Source of the DNA: Parcubacteria group bacterium
Lineage (GTDB): Bacteria; Patescibacteriota; Minisyncoccia; Phycocordibacterales; DATDWN01
Direction: 5' to 3'
Assembly: GCA_039740895.1 (NCBI GenBank)
Contig: JBCLGS010000002.1
Span: 258-64,257, forward strand
DNA: 64,000 bases
Shown here one piece after another: positions 4,383-62,817 of this stretch (its first letter is position 1; each line of letters begins with the position of its first letter). The position numbers were made by a program, and so were the translations under genes. Below the pieces are notes generated by a model that worked only from the letters and a program-made list of their open reading frames with translations, was not told the DNA's origin and did not search any database.

Positions 4383-4391
4383 TTATCCACA
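4383..4391 (+). promoter_or_regulatory. perfect DnaA-box 9-mer TTATCCACA
   Basis: Exact match to the DnaA box consensus; further perfect copies (as TGTGGATAA) at 4697-4705, 6069-6077, 13676-13684, 46904-46912. Confidence 0.3.
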
Positions 4392-4429
4392 GCTATCCCC
4401 TGAGAGCCTAATTGTGGTAGAATAAAAGT

Positions 4430-4591
4430 ATGGAAATAATCTTCGGAATACTAGCATTTATTTGGATGATAATAGGTTCTATAATTAAGTTTATTATCTA
4501 TATTGCTTACTTCTTTCCTCTAATAGGGGCACGGATTTTAGAATGGGCTAACTTATGGCCGACTACATGGCCATTCGGAATTATTTTATAA
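4430..4591 (+). CDS. possible small hydrophobic protein (53 aa, MEIIFGILAFIWMIIGSIIKFIIYIAYFFPLIGARILEWANLWPTTWPFGIIL)
   Basis: Short ORF found by eye in the 790-bp noncoding stretch upstream of rpoB; single predicted TM helix; no homology evidence. Confidence 0.15.
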   Translation: MEIIFGILAFIWMIIGSIIKFIIYIAYFFPLIGARILEWANLWPTTWPFGIIL

Positions 4592-4771
4592 AAGTTTATT
4601 GCTTATTTTTCTTTCTGCTATTACCCCATATGTGTATTTTAACATTATTTAATAAATAATTGCAAAACCTAACCAGTATCACACTCTTCTCTTTCCTTGT
4701 GGATAACTCACTTTGACATTTTATTACTAACTTGCTAATATAATTAAATTATGGCTTCGGCCTCCGAGAAA

Positions 4772-4799
4772 ATCCGCTTTATGCGGGTTTTCGTTTTAT
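4772..4799. terminator. rho-independent terminator-like hairpin (ATCCGC..GCGGGT + T-run), bidirectional
   Basis: aaaatccgctttatgcgggttttcgtttta immediately 3-prime of the minus-strand 129-aa gene stop (4796). Confidence 0.45.
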
Positions 4800-5185
4800 T
4801 GAGGGAAAAATTCCAAAACTCCTCTGATTATAGATTTAAAATCATCATTTGAGATTGTTCCAACCTTTCTTACAAATCTCTTCGTACTAACAGTTCTAAT
4901 CTGGGTCAAAACAACAAAATATTCATTTTTATCGAAAATAAATTTATAATGAAACTTGTCACTTTTCATCTTAGAAGTTATAGGTAAAACCCAAGTCATT
5001 TGTTTGTTAAACTTTCTCAAGACTAAAGCTGTTCTCTCATATTGATTATTTTTACCATCAATCTCAATTCCGATATTTAACCCGAGTGACATCCACCAAA
5101 TTTCTCTTTCATTAACTCCCAAATTATCAGATTTTTTATCTATTATTTTCTTTAACTTATTCCAACTATCAAAATCTTTTTCCAT
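4796..5185 (-). CDS. MazF/PemK-family mRNA interferase-like toxin
   Basis: 129 aa; EREIWWMSLGLNIGIEIDGKNNQYERTALVL...VLPITS...FVVLTQIRTVSTKRFVRKVGTISNDDFKSIIRGVL follows the MazF/PemK pattern (RGDIW.V.L.P..G.E..G.RP.LV.S......V.P.T......Q.R..D..R); lies 15 bp downstream of lexA in the same operon. Confidence 0.5.
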   Translation of the reverse strand: MEKDFDSWNKLKKIIDKKSDNLGVNEREIWWMSLGLNIGIEIDGKNNQYERTALVLRKFNKQMTWVLPITSKMKSDKFHYKFIFDKNEYFVVLTQIRTVSTKRFVRKVGTISNDDFKSIIRGVLEFFPQ

Positions 5186-5200
5186 TATAGTTAAACAATT

Positions 5201-5776
5201 TTAATACTTCCGTATGACCCCTTTGACGATTGCTGCGACGCGAAGTTCATATTGAGGGTAAATGGGTCGGTAATTTTTATTTGCTGGTAATAAATAAACT
5301 TTACCGTCTTTTTTCTTGTAGTATTTCATAGTCCAGCCCCCATCCACTTCGGCAATAACAATGTCACCGTCTTTTGGTTCTCCTTTTCTTTCTGCCACAA
5401 CTAAATCTCCTTCTTTAATTCCTTCATCAATCATTGAATCTCCTTTAACCTCCAATAGGTATGTGGAATCTTTATATCGTATTAAATAATCATCAATATT
5501 TATCATATTTAAAGTCTCTTCTTCTGCCAGTGTAGGAAACCCTGCTTCTACAAGACCGAGAAGTGGGATTTCTCCCATTAGTCTCTTCGGCGTAAGCTTT
5601 CCTCGCGAGTCTTTGTCTACCGTTCCGTCATCAACTAATTTATTTATGAGTTTGTAAACAGCATTTTTAGACTTGAAGTCGACAAGGTCCATGATTTCCT
5701 TGTAGCCAGGCATTCTTTTATTACTTTTATAGAAAGCAATAATTTTATTTTTTTGTCGTAAAAAATTATTTTCCAT
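5201..5776 (-). CDS. lexA: LexA repressor (SOS transcriptional repressor, S24 peptidase)
   Basis: 191 aa; N-terminal winged HTH, LVEAG cleavage region, GDSM serine and a downstream Lys (WTMKYYKK) typical of the LexA Ser-Lys dyad. Confidence 0.85.
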   Translation of the reverse strand: MENNFLRQKNKIIAFYKSNKRMPGYKEIMDLVDFKSKNAVYKLINKLVDDGTVDKDSRGKLTPKRLMGEIPLLGLVEAGFPTLAEEETLNMINIDDYLIRYKDSTYLLEVKGDSMIDEGIKEGDLVVAERKGEPKDGDIVIAEVDGGWTMKYYKKKDGKVYLLPANKNYRPIYPQYELRVAAIVKGVIRKY

Positions 5777-5781
5777 AGTAT

Positions 5782-6003
5782 TTAAAATATAAAAACATTA
5801 GAAAGACTAAGTGGTCGACCAAACCACCCAGAGTTTACTTCACGATTTATCTCGTTATCCAAACCTTTGAGACTACAAAGAATAAATTTATGTCTTTTGG
5901 CCTCCCGAATATATGAGAGACCCTTAATGATTTTCTCATCAATCTGATCATTTAAAACTTCTAACTCACTTCTCAATGTTTTTTCTAAATTTTGTTTACT
6001 CAT
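5782..6003 (-). CDS. hypothetical small protein (73 aa), first gene of the lexA operon; possible antitoxin partner of the MazF-like gene
   Basis: ORF ends 5 bp upstream of lexA; no recognisable family; the GAAC-N4-GTTC box lies just upstream of its start. Confidence 0.3.
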   Translation of the reverse strand: MSKQNLEKTLRSELEVLNDQIDEKIIKGLSYIREAKRHKFILCSLKGLDNEINREVNSGWFGRPLSLSNVFIF

Positions 6004-6038
6004 GGTTTTTTGCTGTTATTTATATATAGATAGTATAA

Positions 6039-6054
6039 GTGAACCCAAGTTCAC
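6039..6054. promoter_or_regulatory. putative LexA (SOS, Cheo-type) box GTGAACCCAAGTTCAC overlapping the promoter of the 73aa-lexA-mazF-like operon
   Basis: Perfect palindrome matching the Gram-positive-type SOS box GAAC-N4-GTTC; located about 35 bp upstream of the operon start, adjacent to TTGCTG ... TAGTAT/TATAAG promoter-like hexamers. Confidence 0.5.
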
Positions 6055-6069
6055 TGTCAAGAAAATACT

Positions 6070-6145
6070 GTGGATAAGGGAAACGAAGTGGATAAGGGAA
6101 ACGAAGTGGACACTTATGCATCAAGTACTCTTGAGGCCACTTATG
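6070..6145 (+). repeat. inverted copy (~76 bp, ~1 mismatch) of the tandem-repeat block that forms the C-terminal extension of rpsP (16403-16479)
   Basis: gtggataagggaaacgaagtggataagggaaacgaagtggacacttatgcatcaagtactcttgaggccacttatgc is the reverse complement of the rpsP 3-prime coding repeat; here intergenic with no start codon. Confidence 0.85.
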
Positions 6146-6361
6146 CCTGAAGTAAACTTCAGGCCAGCGAATATAGAAAACAAAAAATCACCTCTCGCAA
6201 GCCCTGTGGTGATTTATTGTTGTCTTACCTAGCTATATTTACTTAACCTTCTTTGGTTTCTTCTTCTCTTTTTTGTGTCCGTCTCCCTTTGCCATATATT
6301 TGTTTGATTAAAATTTATAATTGCACACTAATAAACGAGCATGGATTAATTATATCATCAT

Positions 6362-8038
6362 TTATGATTCAAGAAAAAGTCTAGCCAGTCGTATTTTCAA
6401 ATAACTTGGTTTCTTTTTTTGTTTCTGCAAAATATTATAAACTGGTGACAAAGTTTTTGTTCCTGCTTTTTCAAATGCTGACAAAATATCATCTAGCTCT
6501 GAACGCTTAAACTCACGACGAAGATATGCGAAGTCTGGACACTTGTCTTTTTCATCTTCTAGGATTTTTTCAATATGAGAAACAATTGTTTCTTGTTTCA
6601 ATCCCCTAACTTCAGCGAGTTTCTCAAGTGGCACTTCCAGCCTAAGCATATCTGCTGTAATCTGCTCTGTTGTTTTCTTCAAAAGTTTTTCTTTCTTTTT
6701 TATTTTAACTTTTTCTTCTGGCTCTATTGATTTCAAATATTTTTCTTGTTTTTCACGAAGCTCTGTTTTTAGTATTTCTTTTAATTTTTCCACGGCCTCT
6801 TGTGACATTTTCTGAAACTCTTTGTCATATTCCAAAACCTCTCCGTCCACTTGAAGTGACATATCATTAAACCCCAAAAGTTTCATTCCGTTCAGAGAAC
6901 GAACACGAGATAAAGCCACATATCCCATTCCTTTTACAAACGACTTGGACAAATCCACCTCCATAGCGTCCAGTGACATTCCTTGACTCTTGTGCACGGT
7001 AATAGCCCAGGCTAAGCGAAGCGGAAACTGCGTAATCTCAGCCTTCACTTTTCCATCTTCTTCTATCTGCCATGACTCATGTCTCGCATATATAGTCTTG
7101 CCATTTGTGGTGACTATGACGGGGTCACCGTATGCATTAAAACTATCTACTACTCCGAGCGTTCCGTTCACATATTCACCTTCTTTATCATTTTTGGTAA
7201 ACATCACGCGTGCTCCGATTTTTAAAACTAATTTCTCAGGTGACAAGCAACTTTTTTTCAGTGCTTCAATAATAAAACTTGAACCTCGTGAGGTCATCTC
7301 AAATTGATTTATATCCCCAGGAATTAAATCTAAGTGTCTGCGGTTAATGACATCCACATCTATATTGTGAGTGTGAAGCTTTGTCGGCTTTGCCCCGGAC
7401 TCCGGCTCTTTATTAAATCTAGTTTTTAAAAGTTCAATGGTTTCCTTCGTAACTTTATTCTCGCGAATCTGATTTAATATCGTGAGATATATGTCATCTT
7501 TCTGACGATGTTGTTCGGACAAATGACAAATAGTGAGCTTTGAGTTCTGCCATGAGTCTGCTTTGAAAGCAAATTCACTCTCTGAAATATCGCCTCGCGT
7601 AACAGGTGGGAGTTGAAAAAAATCCCCAGAAAGAATAACTTGCATTCCACCAAAAGGTTTTTCATTTCGTTTGAACTGTCTGCAAATCCATTCAATGAGG
7701 TCCAGTCGGTAATGGTGAAGCATTGAAACTTCGTCAATTATCAAAACTTTTGTTTTTTCAAAACGCTTGTAGAGATACTGTTTCTCCATCATATTTTCAA
7801 TATCATAATCCGTCAGAACATCTCTGATACCGAGCCCAGACCATGAGTGAATAGTCTGACCACCAAGGTGCGTTGCGGCAATACCAGTGGACGCTGTTAC
7901 GGCTACATCCACAGCATTTGATTTCAGATATTTTATATACTCATTTAAGACATGAGTTTTTCCGCTCCCAGCAGGTCCTGTAAGAAAAACATTTTTACCC
8001 AGTTTTAATATATCGAGTGCTTCGCTTTGTAACATCAC
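6362..8038 (-). CDS. Pif1/RecD-family ATP-dependent DNA helicase with C-terminal HTH-like domain
   Basis: 558 aa; Walker A TGPAGSGKTH, DEVSM Walker B, GGMQVILSGDFFQLPPV, and a C-terminal HKSQGMSLD motif typical of AAA_30/UvrD_C_2 (Pif1-like) helicases. Confidence 0.8.
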   Translation of the reverse strand: MMLQSEALDILKLGKNVFLTGPAGSGKTHVLNEYIKYLKSNAVDVAVTASTGIAATHLGGQTIHSWSGLGIRDVLTDYDIENMMEKQYLYKRFEKTKVLIIDEVSMLHHYRLDLIEWICRQFKRNEKPFGGMQVILSGDFFQLPPVTRGDISESEFAFKADSWQNSKLTICHLSEQHRQKDDIYLTILNQIRENKVTKETIELLKTRFNKEPESGAKPTKLHTHNIDVDVINRRHLDLIPGDINQFEMTSRGSSFIIEALKKSCLSPEKLVLKIGARVMFTKNDKEGEYVNGTLGVVDSFNAYGDPVIVTTNGKTIYARHESWQIEEDGKVKAEITQFPLRLAWAITVHKSQGMSLDAMEVDLSKSFVKGMGYVALSRVRSLNGMKLLGFNDMSLQVDGEVLEYDKEFQKMSQEAVEKLKEILKTELREKQEKYLKSIEPEEKVKIKKKEKLLKKTTEQITADMLRLEVPLEKLAEVRGLKQETIVSHIEKILEDEKDKCPDFAYLRREFKRSELDDILSAFEKAGTKTLSPVYNILQKQKKKPSYLKIRLARLFLES

Positions 8039-11659: not shown

Positions 11660-12103
11660 CTAGTCAACTAAAATTGACTTAAAAAAATCCCCAGAAAGAA
11701 TAACTTGCATTCCACCAAAAGGTTTTTCATTTCGTTTGAACTGTCTGCAAATCCATTCAATGAGGTCCAGTCGGTAATGGTGAAGCATTGAAACTTCGTC
11801 AATTATCAAAACTTTTGTTTTTTCAAAACGCTTGTAGAGATACTGTTTCTCCATCATATTTTCAATATCATAATCCGTCAGAACATCTCTGATACCGAGC
11901 CCAGACCATGAGTGAATAGTCTGACCACCAAGGTGCGTTGCGGCAATACCAGTGGACGCTGTTACGGCTACATCCACAGCATTTGATTTCAGATATTTTA
12001 TATACTCATTTAAGACATGAGTTTTTCCGCTCCCAGCAGGTCCTGTAAGAAAAACATTTTTACCCAGTTTTAATATATCGAGTGCTTCGCTTTGTAACAT
12101 CAC
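11660..12103 (-). pseudogene. truncated duplicate of the Pif1-like helicase 5-prime end (first 142 codons, then frame runs into a stop)
   Basis: Lies within direct-repeat copy 2 (11681-12134); identical N-terminal 142 aa to the full-length gene; lacks the rest of the helicase. Confidence 0.8.
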
Positions 12104-13576: not shown

Positions 13577-13758
13577 TTTTTACTCTCCTATCAAAGAACT
13601 TTTAGCTTCGTTGCCATCATAACACACTAAGTATACCTTTGTCAAAACCTTTTCAGGAAGTGTGGACACTTACACTGTGGATAAGCAAGTTTCCAGGAGG
13701 GTACCCTCCGTGGACCCCTATAATTCTTTAACTTTCAAATCACCAAGCGAATCAATTT

Positions 13759-16293: not shown

Positions 16294-16803
16294 TTACGCA
16301 ATAGTTTCCTCCACAGATGGAGCAACGACTGGGACATCTTGAGCTGGAGTGACTGGCGCCTCAGGATTACCTGATGCGTAAGTGGCCTCAAGAGTACTTG
16401 ATGCATAAGTGGCCTCAAGAGTACTTGATGCATAAGTGTCCACTTCGTTTCCCTTATCCACTTCGTTTCCCTTATCCGCTTCGCTTTCCTTAGCTGGAGC
16501 AGTTACAACAGGAACTTCTTTTACAATGGCATTTTTCAAAGGAAGAACATTGACTTTCTTTCCTTCTATAATTTTCCTACTAACCAAAAGATTATGAACG
16601 GTGCCTGAAGTTTGTGCTCCTTGTAACATCCAATAATTTATTCTCTCTGCATTGAAGACAGCTTTCTCTCCGCTTCTTGAATCATAGTTACCCAAAATCT
16701 CAAGTGATTTACCACTTTTTGTAGAGTTCTTTGAATCAGTTAGAACAAGTCTAAAAACTGGTTCGTGTTTTCGTCCTACTCTTTGTAATCGTATTTTTAA
16801 CAT
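16294..16803 (-). CDS. rpsP: 30S ribosomal protein S16 with ~80-aa repetitive C-terminal extension
   Basis: Start at internal Met MLKIRLQRVGRKHEPVFRLVLTD (canonical S16 N-terminus); the tracked ORF runs further upstream antisense to rnr, which is probably not translated. C-terminus carries tandem DKGNEV x2 and TYASSTLEA x2 repeats. Confidence 0.85.
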   Translation of the reverse strand: MLKIRLQRVGRKHEPVFRLVLTDSKNSTKSGKSLEILGNYDSRSGEKAVFNAERINYWMLQGAQTSGTVHNLLVSRKIIEGKKVNVLPLKNAIVKEVPVVTAPAKESEADKGNEVDKGNEVDTYASSTLEATYASSTLEATYASGNPEAPVTPAQDVPVVAPSVEETIA

Positions 16804-22583: not shown

Positions 22584-22745
22584 AGCCAAGGTCGAGTGAG
22601 AAATGATATTATCATTTCGCAAGACCTTGAGCATTTTGTAATCAAAATGTGAAAGGTGTACTGCTCCTGTAAGGAGGAAAATTAAAAAATGATTAGAGCC
22701 ATACTTAGTGGTATGGTGAGAATTATTTTTGTTTTTTAGACGATG
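22584..22745 (+). repeat. composite intergenic element: family B structured repeat (copy 1) with a nested inverted family A insertion (22596-22674)
   Basis: ccaaggtcg lead-in, then inverted family A, then the gagccatacttagtggtatggtgag inner hairpin flanked by an AT-rich outer stem. Confidence 0.75.
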
Positions 22746-30272: not shown

Positions 30273-30659
30273 CTAGGAGACAGTTGCGAGGATCTTCGCC
30301 AAGATGGACTCGGCGTTGTCTATCCCTTTGTCAGCAAATGGTAATTTCATAAGCTTTCCTTTGGGAAAAGTGAAGTCGACTCCAAATTCTGGATGTCTCC
30401 CAATCTCCCTCAGAAAGCCATCGTCAACGGATACTGCTACAACTTTTGATTTCAGCGACCCAAGTCGCTTGAAATTTGAGACGTAGTCTGAACCACCCGT
30501 GAGGATGTTCATTCCTGAGAGAAAGAACAAGTCAATTGTTACACCCTCAGGAACATTGTCTTTGTGGCAGACGACCTTTTTGCCAAAATAGGCACGAAGG
30601 TTTTCTGCGATTGTGTCCGTGTGATAACTATCACGGACAAGAATGTGAATAAGGCTCAT
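30273..30659 (-). CDS. hypothetical protein, possibly a degenerate CheY-like receiver domain
   Basis: 128 aa; alternating hydrophobic beta/alpha pattern with ILVRD and IDLFFLSG reminiscent of receiver domains; weak. Confidence 0.2.
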   Translation of the reverse strand: MSLIHILVRDSYHTDTIAENLRAYFGKKVVCHKDNVPEGVTIDLFFLSGMNILTGGSDYVSNFKRLGSLKSKVVAVSVDDGFLREIGRHPEFGVDFTFPKGKLMKLPFADKGIDNAESILAKILATVS

Positions 30660-30754
30660 AGAGCCCTCCTTTTTTTATCTCCATTAGCAATTATATACCC
30701 TTTTTAACTAATTGTCAAGCATACACATAGCGAAAAAACTGTTATGATAAATAA

Positions 30755-32512
30755 ATGGAACAAACACAAATTCAACAAAATAGACACTCGCTCGCCCATT
30801 TATTAGCGGCTGCCATTTTAAAAATTTGGCCAGATGCATTACCCACTCTTGGACCTGCTATAGACACAGGTTTTTACTATGACTTTGATTTTAAGACCCC
30901 AATCTCGGATAAGGATTTTGAAAAGATAGAAAACAAGATGCGAGAAATTGCAAAAAAATGGAAAGGTTTTGAGAAAAAAGAAATTTCTATAGACGAAGCT
31001 AGAAAACTTTTTGCTGGAAATCCGTACAAACTAGAGCTCATTGAGGAAATTAATAAGAAAAAAGAATCAATCACTCTATACACATCCGGAACTGGCGACA
31101 CAGAATCCACTGACCTTTGTCGTGGAGGTCACACCGATGACATGGCAAGGACGGTCCTTGCCATGGGGTGGAAACTCGAACGAGTTGCTGGTGCATACTG
31201 GCGAGGTGACGAGAAAAACAAAATGCTCACTCGTGTTTATGGATTGGCTTTTGAGTCAAAAGAAAAATTAGAAGAATATATAAAACTTCGAGAAGAAGCG
31301 GAAAAACGAGATCATAAAAAAATAGGAAAAGAAATGGGTCTTTTCACTGTTTCGGATTTGGTCGGCAAAGGATTACCAATGTATCTTCCAAAAGGAAATA
31401 TAATCAGAACTGAATTGGAAAAAATGATCCGATATGAAAAAGAAAAACTTGGATATTCGTTTGTTACGATTCCACATATTGCTAGAAAAGAGTTGTACAT
31501 CCGTAGCGGTCATATGGGTAAATATGATGCAATGATGCCAACTATGACAGACGAAAATGGTGATGAGTTTGTAATGAAAGCTATGAATTGTCCTCACCAC
31601 TTTGAGATATACAATGCTGAGCAACATACATACAAGGACTTACCTCTTCGACTTGCCGAAAATACAACAGTATATCGAAACGAAAAAAGTGGTGAACTTT
31701 CTGGACTTTTGCGGGTAAAAAATCTTACACAAGATGACACTCACCATTTTATAAGACAAGACCAAATTCAATCAGAAATAAAAATGATTATTGGTCTAAT
31801 GCAAAAAGTTTATAGTATGTTTGGTTTTAATGATTACAAAGTTAAAATTTCAATCCGGGATCCAAAAAATAAAGAAAAATATTTTGGCAGTGATGAAGTC
31901 TGGGAAAAAGCTGAAGGAATTTTGATTGATGAAGTAAAAAAATGGGGTGTGAAATATAGTGTTGAAGAAGGTGAAGCCGCATTTTATGGTCCTAAAATTG
32001 ATATTGGGGTGAAAGACTCAATTGGTCGTGATTGGCAGTTAACGACTATCCAACTTGATTTCAACCAACCAGAAAACTTTGAAATGGACTATATCGGTGA
32101 TGATGGAAAAAAACATCGAGTGGTTGTTCTACATGTTGCCATCTTTGGATCATTTGAAAGATTTATGGGAATTATTATTGAACACTATGCCGGAAACTTC
32201 CCTGTTTGGCTTGCACCAGTACAAGTCAAAGTCATTCCTGTCAGAACAAGTCACAATGAATATGCTAAAAAGGTTTATGAGACACTTCGCGCAAATGACA
32301 TTCGCGCAGAGTTTGATGATGATGATGAAAACCTGGGTAAAAAAGTCCATGCTACAAAAAATGATAGAACTCCGTATTGGATTGTACTAGGTGATAAAGA
32401 GGTTGAGGCAAACACTGTCACACTCGAATCCCGTGACTCCGGTCAGCTCGGCCAGATGACGGTTAATGAACTTGTCGCAAAACTCACCACAGAGATTAAA
32501 GACAGAAAATAA
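30755..32512 (+). CDS. thrS: threonyl-tRNA synthetase (lacking N-terminal TGS domain)
   Basis: 585 aa; second additional domain HSLAHLLAAAI, class II core motifs and C-terminal anticodon-binding domain. Confidence 0.93.
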   Translation: MEQTQIQQNRHSLAHLLAAAILKIWPDALPTLGPAIDTGFYYDFDFKTPISDKDFEKIENKMREIAKKWKGFEKKEISIDEARKLFAGNPYKLELIEEINKKKESITLYTSGTGDTESTDLCRGGHTDDMARTVLAMGWKLERVAGAYWRGDEKNKMLTRVYGLAFESKEKLEEYIKLREEAEKRDHKKIGKEMGLFTVSDLVGKGLPMYLPKGNIIRTELEKMIRYEKEKLGYSFVTIPHIARKELYIRSGHMGKYDAMMPTMTDENGDEFVMKAMNCPHHFEIYNAEQHTYKDLPLRLAENTTVYRNEKSGELSGLLRVKNLTQDDTHHFIRQDQIQSEIKMIIGLMQKVYSMFGFNDYKVKISIRDPKNKEKYFGSDEVWEKAEGILIDEVKKWGVKYSVEEGEAAFYGPKIDIGVKDSIGRDWQLTTIQLDFNQPENFEMDYIGDDGKKHRVVVLHVAIFGSFERFMGIIIEHYAGNFPVWLAPVQVKVIPVRTSHNEYAKKVYETLRANDIRAEFDDDDENLGKKVHATKNDRTPYWIVLGDKEVEANTVTLESRDSGQLGQMTVNELVAKLTTEIKDRK

Positions 32513-46690: not shown

Positions 46691-46916
46691 AGTTAGCAAG
46701 GGCGACATTTGCGAAGTTCGTCAGAATGCTCGAGTACACAATTAGGGCAACAAATTATTTTGTATTTCATATAGTAAATAACTCACCTTTTGAATTCTTC
46801 CGTGCGGTAAGTATACCAGAGTTTGCGTCCAAAGTATTTAATACTCTATACCCCTCGTTACCTATGGGTATAAATTTATCGTTTAGATTTATAAAATATG
46901 GATGTGGATAACTTAG

Positions 46917-62181: not shown

Positions 62182-62817
62182 ATGGACAACACACAAAAAC
62201 TTATAGAACTATTCAAAGAATTCCCCGGCATCGGACCAAGACAAGCAAAAAGGTTTGTTTATTTTTTACTAATGCGAAATAATGGCTACTCCGGCGAGCT
62301 AGCTCGGTTGATTTCAGAAATCAAATCAAATGTGACTGTCTGCAAATCATGTTTCCGATTTTATACGAAAAGCAGTTCAAAAAGTGATGTATGTCCTGTA
62401 TGCCTAGATGAAAATCGCGACAAATCGCTTCTTATGATTGTTTCCCACGATGTTGATTTTGAAAATATAGAGAAAACAAAATTTTTTAATGGCTATTATT
62501 TCGTACTCGGTGGAACTGTCCCAATATTGGAAAAAAATCCAGAGAAACGAATTCGTCAAACAGAATTATTGGGTATTGTTAAGAAAAAAATTTCTGAAGG
62601 TTTGAAAGAAATTATAATCGCCTTGAGTTACAACCCTGAAGGTGAAAATTCGTTGACTTACCTAAAACAAATTTTGTCGCCACTAACTAATCACGGAGGG
62701 GAACCCTCCGTAGTAAAAATAAAAATATCCACACTCGGCCGAGGTCTGTCCACAGGCACAGAGTTGGAATACTCCGACAGTGACACAATAAAAAACGCTT
62801 TGAAAAATAGACAGTAA
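62182..62817 (+). CDS. recR: recombination protein RecR (with palindromic in-frame element)
   Basis: HhH motif FPGIGPRQAKR, C4 zinc finger CKSCFRF..CPVC, Toprim domain; carries CGGAGGGGAACCCTCCG at 62695-62714 encoding NHGGEPSVV. Confidence 0.93.
   Translation: MDNTQKLIELFKEFPGIGPRQAKRFVYFLLMRNNGYSGELARLISEIKSNVTVCKSCFRFYTKSSSKSDVCPVCLDENRDKSLLMIVSHDVDFENIEKTKFFNGYYFVLGGTVPILEKNPEKRIRQTELLGIVKKKISEGLKEIIIALSYNPEGENSLTYLKQILSPLTNHGGEPSVVKIKISTLGRGLSTGTELEYSDSDTIKNALKNRQ

Follow-up and report, generated by a model that had tools for sequence, protein, structure and literature searches.

MazF toxins are textbook type II toxins, which are paired with protein antitoxins. In the SymE/SymR pair of E. 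coli, an RNA-cleaving toxin is transcribed from a LexA-repressed promoter, and a constitutive cis antisense small RNA (sRNA) is outrun when DNA damage induces transcription of the toxin gene. This pair is an SOS-induced type I toxin-antitoxin system (Kawano et al. 2007, as cited in PMC2701414). SOS-induced toxins that are checked by antisense RNAs, as well as lexA operons with an SOS box, are of kinds that are already known. We analyzed a 64-kb stretch of DNA from a Parcubacteria group bacterium (hereafter, the window) and focus on a locus on the minus strand of positions 4796 to 6060, where a gene for a MazF/PemK-like protein lies directly behind lexA and faces a putative sRNA gene. The explanation we favor, to which we assign a probability of roughly 60%, is that an SOS-induced MazF-like toxin is restrained by a constitutive RNA antitoxin, a convergent sRNA, in a manner analogous to SymE/SymR. 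What appears to be new is a MazF-fold toxin with a small convergent RNA partner, which is found in two phyla and has repeatedly been captured by the lexA operon of Patescibacteria.

The likeness to SymE/SymR is that the toxin would be under a LexA-repressed promoter and would be held down by an antisense sRNA encoded in cis. However, SymE has an AbrB/MazE-like fold, whereas a MazF fold is predicted here; SymR overlaps the 5' end and start codon of its target, whereas our sRNA overlaps the 3' end of the toxin gene; and SymE has its own LexA box, whereas our toxin gene rides on the lexA operon. With the type II systems MazEF, PemIK and Kis-Kid, the locus shares the Pfam family, the fold, and the positions of the conserved catalytic Arg and Thr, but it has no upstream MazE or PemI and no autoregulated two-gene operon, and there is an extra N-terminal helix and an sRNA partner. 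Convergent transcripts that overlap at their 3' ends or share a terminator are also known from the type I systems par RNA I/RNA II (pAD1), txpA/RatA and bsrG/SR4 (B. subtilis). However, the toxins of these systems are small hydrophobic membrane peptides, whereas ours is a soluble protein of 129 amino acids (aa) with a predicted RNase fold. In the type III system ToxIN, an endoribonuclease toxin is neutralized by a structured RNA, as we propose here, and a single-stranded linker in our sRNA hints at recognition by protein. However, ToxI is a toxin-processed array of tandem repeats that precedes toxN in the same orientation, whereas our sRNA is single, convergent and non-repeated, with no tandem repeats near it in the window; the toxin there belongs to the ToxN/AbiQ family and here to the PemK family.

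The three open reading frames (ORFs) of the locus encode, in this order, proteins of 73, 191 and 129 aa, separated by gaps of 5 and 15 nucleotides (nt). The same gene order, strand and gaps were given in an initial annotation of this DNA, and the ORF coordinates confirm them. The last of the three ORFs is the toxin gene:

4796 to 5185, minus strand: gene for an endoribonuclease-like toxin of the MazF/PemK family, with a helical extension at the N terminus and no recognizable promoter of its own (PF02452, AF2 model, Foldseek)

The 129-aa protein matches the Pfam family PemK_toxin (PF02452) with 46.3 bits, against a cut-off of 23.1, and a PHROG family annotated as "MazF-like growth inhibitor" (E = 3e-15). 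An AlphaFold (AF2) model built from 56 homologues has a pLDDT of 83 and a pTM of 0.78. All of its top 50 Foldseek matches in the PDB are MazF/PemK-type proteins, with target-normalized TM-scores of 0.62 to 0.80, and the leading matches are S. aureus MazF, M. tuberculosis MazF-mt1, B. subtilis YdcE, B. anthracis MoxT and E. coli MazF. A profile alignment places the invariant R51 on the Arg of GVRPV and T70, which is at least 90% conserved, on the Thr of AIT; these we take to be the MazF catalytic pair (Arg25/Thr48 in B. subtilis and S. aureus MazF). The protein is thus, as judged by profile and model, a member of the MazF-fold toxin family with predicted nuclease activity, and both the HMM search and the structure prediction agree with the initial annotation, which had called it MazF/PemK-like. 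An additional N-terminal helix, MxKDFDxWNxxKK, is highly conserved in the family and missing from canonical MazF. An exact look-up of the protein in a contig index returned no match, and homologues of 45 to 67% identity are plentiful in Patescibacteria metagenomes.

No gene for a MazE/PemI protein antitoxin (AbrB or RHH) adjoins the toxin gene. The initial annotation had made the same remark, and neither the ORFs of the window nor a profile search yields such a gene. The genes ahead of PemK homologues elsewhere are diverse, including infB, DUF5674, rpoC, several aminoacyl-tRNA synthetases, obg, rnc and pilB, and no recurrent antitoxin family is present among 57 upstream neighbors. As a positive control, the canonical MazF of Piscirickettsia plasmids, which has no N-terminal extension, is encoded directly downstream of an AbrB/MazE gene. 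"Solo" toxin homologues have, to our knowledge, never been explained. More than half of the toxin homologues in genomes appear to be of this kind (PMC2701414).

A comparison of the 3' flanks of PemK homologues produced a conserved nucleotide element at or just past every stop codon. Read on the strand opposite to the toxin gene, the element has a near-consensus promoter, TTGAC(A/T)-16/17-(TGC)TAnnAT, then a spacer of ~11 nt and a short hairpin, in most cases GGC-UUCG-GCC. A single-stranded linker, (U/C)CCGA, which is invariant, joins this to a second, GC-rich hairpin of ~10 bp, and CG(A/U)UUUU comes last. A regular expression for the promoter, the two hairpins and the U-run on the opposite strand matches 54 loci. 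The corresponding features of the window are the following:

4713 to 4741, plus strand: sRNA promoter (TTGACA, 17 nt with TGC, TAATAT; 10 of 12 consensus positions plus the TG extension), with an equivalent in 54 homologous loci

4746 to 4803, plus strand: convergent sRNA of ~53 nt, a candidate RNA antitoxin, which matches covariance model R1 and overlaps the PemK stop codon (4796 to 4798)

The window sRNA is composed of a 5' GGC-UUCG-GCC hairpin, a UCCGA linker, a 10-bp terminator hairpin and a U-run, and it is predicted to fold into the same two hairpins (minimum free energy -19.1 kcal/mol, z = -3.4). Covariance model R1, which was built from 46 sequences, has exactly one match in the window, namely this RNA (63 bits, E about 1e-18). 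It also matches 73 of the 77 PemK genes with sufficient 3' flank, always on the opposite strand, and the other four carry related variants. The 3' end of the sRNA lies a few nt from the PemK stop codon or, where the ORF reads through the element, ~55 nt inside the ORF. Across 84 lexA loci (621 kb), R1 matches only L078, L040 and L033, where PemK is present, and L025, which we read as a remnant (L numbers denote individual loci). Rfam searches in permissive mode returned chance-level matches only, the best overlapping one being RF01772 with 24.5 bits versus a gathering score of 55.

Because the sRNA ends at the toxin stop codon, any toxin transcript would be complementary to it at the 3' end. 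The convergent sRNA gene abuts or overlaps the 3' end of the toxin gene in 73 of 77 loci, as measured on gene ends. We found no intact PemK gene without the sRNA, and the decayed loci L110 and L025 retain the sRNA or its remnant. That the sRNA outlasts the decayed toxin is the asymmetry expected for a toxin-antitoxin pair.

Several observations address the nature of the element. In an alignment of 79 distinct homologues, paired cells amount to 91.9%, versus 69.3% in shuffles, and the covariation score is 0.539, versus 0.153 when shuffled and at most 0.085 in slid controls. The second helix has compensatory changes at seven of nine pairs. Tetraloops of the UUCG or GNRA type occur at 85 of 121 loops on the sRNA strand, versus 6 of 112 on the toxin strand, and the U-run and promoter are likewise on the antisense strand.

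These data bear on an alternative in which the PemK-like protein stands alone as a non-addictive RNase or an accessory protein, and the 3' element is only a bidirectional terminator, an insulator or a cassette boundary. The second hairpin and its U-run do have the form of a terminator, many toxin homologues are solo in genomes, as noted above, and PADLOC has no defense-system model that matches any of the four local proteins. A homologue on the Campylobacter prophage CJIE4 is also detectable as protein in growing cells. However, a terminator has no need of the near-consensus inward promoter that is found at a fixed distance in at least 54 loci, or of the UUCG hairpin and invariant CCGAG linker that are conserved upstream of it. 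In addition, the loop types are strand-specific for the antisense RNA, the counterpart on the Campylobacter plasmid pVir (see below) is a discrete, very abundant 77-nt RNA, and remnants retain the sRNA while the toxin decays. We consider this alternative doubtful, albeit worth keeping in mind.

The element could also be protein-coding, in which case it would specify a C-terminal tail of the toxin, "NENPxxSGSxRRPKP," and the gene in the window would be truncated. In roughly one homologue out of four, the ORF continues across the element and gives such a tail. However, the stop codon of most loci precedes the element and is only a few nt away from the 3' end of the sRNA, and the window has a TAA stop codon ahead of the element, which is also in another frame. 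Moreover, compensatory changes keep the hairpins but alter the would-be peptide, for example in L040 and L078. A coding function is consequently very improbable.

The preferred reading of the element as an sRNA gene is accompanied by some observations on variants. In L104 (2361 to 5609) and L106, three to four PemK paralogues are clustered in ~3 kb. R1 detects the sRNA at two of them, these additional matches going with additional paralogues. A third paralogue in L104 and L106 has a class-2 variant sRNA, GGCUUCGGCC-U(C/U)G-CCCUCGCAAGAGGG-AGAA..., with no obvious U-run, and this variant accompanies a distinct PemK subclade that includes L019, L031 and L168. Separately, a short ORF in the sRNA (MASASE...) was considered and rejected, since its start codon and peptide are unconserved and the hairpins are conserved.

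The N-extended PemK subfamily is also present in Campylobacterota, namely on a Nitratiruptor plasmid (48% identity), a Helicobacter suis plasmid, C. jejuni pVir-type plasmids (35.7% identity, E = 3e-11) and the prophage CJIE4 (34%). None of the Campylobacterota homologues that we looked at has MazE beside it, and in the case of CJIE4 the authors themselves remarked on the missing MazE (PMC3995785). In each case, the antisense strand has an extended -10 promoter beyond the stop codon and then hairpins, the final one directly adjoining the stop.

On the pVir plasmid of C. jejuni 81-176, the toxin homologue, pVir0047 (405 nt), occupies 30634 to 31038 on the plus strand. The sRNA CJpv3, a 77-nt RNA detected by Northern blot, runs from 31119 to 31043 on the minus strand (Dugar et al. 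2013, PMC3656092, Table S12). CJpv3 thus faces pVir0047, starting ~80 nt beyond the stop codon and ending 5 nt from it. The transcription start site (TSS) signal is 16164 at the start of CJpv3 and 28 at the toxin's own start (PMC3656092, Table S5). An RNA of the predicted type therefore exists beside a homologue, in the same position and in large excess over the toxin transcript, which fits an antitoxin. The pVir0047/CJpv3 pair shares with our locus a homologous N-extended PemK and a convergent sRNA that abuts the stop. However, it is plasmid-borne, its toxin has its own TSS (30608), it has no LexA link, and its sRNA is unrelated in sequence; R1 finds no match to the Campylobacterota sRNAs. 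A type I system, CjrA/CjpT, is reported on pVir (Shen et al. 2016, as cited in PMC10470494 and PMC7826846). It is possibly the same as CJpv3/pVir0047, in which case the principle would already be known from a homologue. On the prophage CJIE4-3 (L174), the MazF-like gene is located at 2480 to 2914 as a moron between the terminase large subunit and portal genes. At its 3' end, the antisense strand shows a -10 promoter of the extended type together with a GC hairpin and its U-run.

The remaining part of the explanation concerns the SOS response, for which the following features are relevant:

5201 to 5776, minus strand: lexA, encoding the autocleavable SOS repressor (TIGR00498 above cut-off; cleavage site and catalytic residues align with those of E. 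coli LexA)

5782 to 6003, minus strand: orf73, encoding a small protein with a predicted helical hairpin, the first gene of the LexA operon, with a homologue before lexA in 80 of 80 loci

6032 to 6060, minus strand: promoter of the orf73-lexA(-pemK) unit (TTGACA, 17-nt spacer, TATACT; 11 of 12 consensus matches), with the same layout in related loci

6039 to 6054, no strand: LexA operator (SOS box), GTGAAC-N4-GTTCAC, which occupies the promoter spacer and is perfect at 79 of 80 related lexA loci

The 191-aa protein matches the NCBIfam LexA equivalog TIGR00498 with 121.3 bits (cut-off 110.95) and also Peptidase_S24, and the Pfam LexA_DNA_bind domain is weakly scored at 13.5 bits. An alignment to E. 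coli LexA shows that the Ala-Gly cleavage site has been kept, as have both catalytic residues, Ser (in GDSM) and Lys. Its homologues number in the thousands, and the nearest, which are 72 to 98% identical, are named LexA in Zambryskibacteria, Taylorbacteria and other Paceibacteria.

The promoter spacer is filled by GTGAACTTGGGTTCAC, and the palindrome GTGAACCCAAGTTCAC lies at 6039 to 6054 between the -35 box TTGACA (6060) and the -10 box TATACT (ending at 6032), where the initial annotation had noticed a perfect palindrome at a predicted promoter. The core motif GAAC-N4-GTTC occurs once in the window, versus 0.86 occurrences expected, and 57 of 100 shuffled sequences contain at least one, so that the site alone is not significant. 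The case for an operator must therefore rest on conservation in relatives, for which 80 genome loci were fetched around LexA orthologues. A perfect GTGAAC-N4-GTTCAC is present within 200 nt upstream of the orf73 homologue in 79 of these loci, and the site of the 80th deviates at one or two positions. The arms never vary and the four bases at the center do so freely; a TAnnnT -10 box follows 0 to 2 nt further on in 78 of the 79 loci. An absence of the palindrome from relatives, which would have spoken against the initial annotation, is clearly not what these loci show. Even a close relative whose LexA is 98% identical (L089) has the operator with other central bases. The conserved palindrome is a phylogenetic footprint of a promoter-occluding operator to which LexA is predicted to bind, and orf73-lexA with this operator is, by its sequence, the standard and presumably self-repressed LexA operon of Paceibacteria. 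With up to two mismatches allowed, the window has no further LexA boxes except one chance-level site at 62642, and so it tells nothing more about the regulon. A LexA-governed regulon in the same superphylum was the subject of comparative genomics on the SOS network of Patescibacteria (Sanchez-Osuna, Barbe and Erill 2017, Environ Microbiol 19:3465, as cited in PMC8565304).

The distribution of orf73 bears on a proposal of the initial annotation, namely that the 73-aa protein is a candidate antitoxin or regulator, which would make orf73-lexA-pemK a three-part toxin-antitoxin operon. The protein is small, shares the transcription unit and lacks a functional assignment: each of its 42 database homologues is "hypothetical," and it has no Pfam family. 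However, a homologue is found immediately upstream of lexA in all 80 loci, and in only four of those is a PemK gene right behind lexA. Near PemK homologues elsewhere, orf73 occurs in 1 of 80 loci, there again with lexA, and L089 retains orf73 without the toxin. The AF2 model (pLDDT 80) has helices at residues 3 to 27 and 32 to 57, arranged as a hairpin, and a disordered tail. It resembles no antitoxin fold, and a fold search returned only generic helical hairpins with E > 0.6 and no informative match. We conclude from the distribution that orf73 belongs to the LexA operon and not to the toxin, and the proposal is scarcely credible.

A related alternative makes LexA itself the antitoxin, i.e., a self-cleaving helix-turn-helix protein whose loss frees the toxin, as part of a damage-triggered type II pair. 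LexA is encoded directly upstream, in the usual position of an antitoxin, and PemK genes recur behind lexA. However, LexA is a housekeeping orthologue that is 72 to 98% identical across toxin-less Paceibacteria, and all 77 metagenomic PemK homologues are located elsewhere than directly downstream of lexA, one of them with lexA 1.2 kb downstream. The toxin, moreover, already has another, universally conserved partner in the sRNA. An antitoxin role for LexA is thus highly improbable.

Turning to the arrangement of lexA and the toxin gene, a comparison with L089 (GCA_039740855.1) identifies a segment that is specific to the strain:

4401 to 5200, no strand: strain-specific 800-bp segment directly after the lexA stop codon, containing the PemK gene, the sRNA gene and a 53-aa ORF

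In L089, the Pif1 helicase-orf73-lexA-rpoB synteny is the same, the interval from lexA to rpoB is only 467 bp long, and a PemK gene is absent. Homology between the two genomes ends at the lexA stop and restarts at 4400, and 70 unrelated bases take the place of the 800 bp. It follows that the lexA-toxin arrangement was gained or lost recently within a species-level lineage. The lexA-toxin operon described in the initial annotation thus stands insofar as the PemK gene is 15 nt behind lexA, but it represents a strain-level insertion rather than a fixed operon design. The 53-aa ORF of the segment (4430 to 4591, plus strand) is strongly hydrophobic. It precedes the sRNA promoter, matches no family and has no counterpart in the fetched loci.

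PemK genes lie directly behind lexA in 4 of the 80 loci (L019, L031, L033 and L040), 5 to 21 nt past the end of the lexA match, and L078 has a convergent copy 1.3 kb from lexA. The PemK proteins of lexA loci share 30 to 51% mutual identity, save for the near-identical L019 and L033, are 33 to 40% identical to the window toxin and belong to different subclades. Because the best relatives of the L031 and L040 proteins (44 to 76% identical) are in non-lexA contexts, these appear to be separate captures. In L110, an internally deleted PemK (MQKDFDNWNKV...) is located 17 nt after lexA and the sRNA is kept; in L025, an sRNA remnant is all that is left. In 603 kb of lexA loci, four of the five PemK genes reside no more than 600 nt beyond the 3' end of lexA, an interval that amounts to 7.5% of the sequence (binomial P = 1.5e-4, or 1.6e-3 with the near-identical L019 and L033 merged). 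Predicted toxin modules or their remnants are therefore found behind lexA in several independent lineages.

In other Paceibacteria (L009 to L088), lexA is often followed co-directionally by small genes that, by sequence reading, resemble alkylation or base-repair genes: MGMT/ATL-like at 19 loci, DUF167-like at 17, DUF1905-like at 15 and 3-methyladenine glycosylase-like at 5. The 3' side of lexA thus seems to be a place where SOS cargo varies. One PemK module, in L117, is preceded (40 to 2523) by the gene for a PEP-utilizing enzyme, which an intein with a LAGLIDADG domain interrupts. The 16-mer GGCTTCGGCCTCCGAG is found at more than 120 loci of viral contigs, where it represents chance matches in phage DNA (median GC 56%) with no PemK gene and only two weak covariance-model matches; there is thus no evidence for a phage-borne module in Patescibacteria.

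As the initial annotation had proposed, the locus reads as a single transcription unit under the LexA box, given the gene spacing and the lack of a terminator. No terminator-like site is present between lexA and the PemK gene, and the sole such site is located after the PemK stop codon (4768 to 4792). A terminator-like hairpin inside orf73 (5831 to 5807) is treated as incidental, because it sits in conserved coding sequence and is lost in L089. Within 150 nt upstream of the PemK start codon, a promoter motif was found in 0 of 70 homologous loci, so the toxin gene seems to depend on read-through from upstream.

Under the explanation that we favor, LexA would bind GTGAAC-N4-GTTCAC within the promoter spacer and block RNA polymerase. 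DNA damage would lead to self-cleavage of LexA and derepression of the orf73-lexA operon, and transcription, having passed orf73 and lexA, is expected to reach the PemK gene. The sRNA, presumably constitutive because it has its own strong, LexA-independent promoter, would neutralize basal toxin expression. Because the toxin would be transcribed from a LexA-repressed promoter, damage would raise its mRNA above the sRNA threshold, presumably resulting in RNA cleavage and growth arrest. What the data establish is the gene order, the conserved operator, the predicted MazF fold, the indel, the strict pairing of toxin and covarying sRNA, and an expressed sRNA at the equivalent place beside a Campylobacter homologue; co-transcription, toxicity, the antitoxin role and the consequence for the cell are inferred from these.

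Neutralization could occur in two ways. In the first, which follows from the layout, the sRNA would act as an antisense RNA at the 3' end, as in type I systems, through duplex formation, decay by RNase III or transcriptional collision. In the second, the sRNA would bind the toxin protein directly, as in type III systems. Direct binding is suggested by the near-invariant CCGAG linker and the UUCG hairpin, since a cis-antisense RNA needs no sequence conservation, as well as by the extra basic N-terminal helix of the toxin and by the presence of the CJIE4 protein in growing cells.

A number of facts weigh against this explanation. Co-transcription of lexA and the PemK gene is deduced solely from their spacing and from the missing terminator and promoter. 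The nearest relatives of the toxin (60 to 67% identical) sit behind other genes, and 0 of the 77 metagenomic PemK homologues are directly behind lexA, implying that SOS coupling is no property of the family but an occasional option of the module. The window protein has a Thr beside the catalytic Arg where 90% of the family has Pro. As for the RNA, a bidirectional terminator would covary too, so that covariation alone is no proof of a regulatory RNA, and the Campylobacter sRNAs are like those of Patescibacteria in layout only, not in sequence. Finally, proteomics detected the homologous CJIE4 protein in growing cells (PMC3995785), which argues against a pure block of translation and may mean that the family is not strongly toxic.

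A broader proposal is that the N-extended PemK/MazF proteins of Patescibacteria and of Campylobacterota plasmids and prophages form a distinct class of toxin-antitoxin systems, neutralized by a dedicated structured sRNA and not by a protein, possibly with direct contact of RNA and protein by way of the linker and the N-terminal helix, and that repeated capture of the promoterless modules behind lexA was selected for SOS-coupled release. We put this forward tentatively, as a possibility that falls somewhat short of even odds. If it is true, selection might have acted on, for example, an abortive response to phage or to prophage induction in bacteria that largely lack CRISPR.

The explanation that we favor would provide a testable answer for one large subfamily of solo MazF proteins, in that their partner would be a small RNA that is invisible to gene callers. 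It would also mean that a streamlined, uncultured lineage has repeatedly wired a toxin to the operon of its SOS repressor, which would link DNA damage to growth arrest at the RNA level. With the pVir0047/CJpv3 pair, the mechanism can be studied in culture.

Repeats are present around the locus, one of them just upstream of the lexA promoter:

6070 to 6110, no strand: 18-nt tandem array of DnaA-box-like GTGGATAA units, with 2.3 copies here and 3 in L089, just upstream of the lexA -35 box

The perfect DnaA-box-like 9-mer TTATCCACA occurs five times in the window, versus 0.63 expected, at 4383 to 4391, 4698 to 4706, 6069 to 6077, 13676 to 13684 and 46903 to 46911. Most copies are 5 to 8 nt upstream of -35 boxes; the promoters concerned are those of lexA and the sRNA gene, together with a promoter-like site ahead of rpoB, and at lexA the 9-mer makes up the tandem array given above. 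In other loci, the 9-mer is found within 30 nt of 8 of 51 sRNA promoters (background about 0.01). The 9-mer may serve as a regulator site close to promoters, perhaps for input from DnaA or replication stress.

A segment of ~75 nt upstream of the lexA promoter (CATAAGTGGCCTCAAGAGTACTTGATGCATAAGTGTCCACTTCGTTTCCCTTATCC..., at about 6085 to 6160) recurs ~10 kb away at 16404 to 16480. A 300-nt exact direct duplicate is present at 7616 to 7915 and 11681 to 11980, the first copy being within the Pif1-like helicase gene (6362 to 8038), and could be a paralogue or an assembly artifact. A 46-nt hairpin element with A- and T-run flanks (AAAAAT..GCCATACTTAGTGGTATGG..ATTTTT) is present in five copies, at 22685, 23673, 38429, 52924 and 55631, which resemble dispersed bidirectional terminators. 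At about 6240 to 6296, the minus strand has a tiny and very basic ORF, MAKGDGHKKEKKKPKKVK, in the interval from the Pif1 helicase gene to the lexA promoter.

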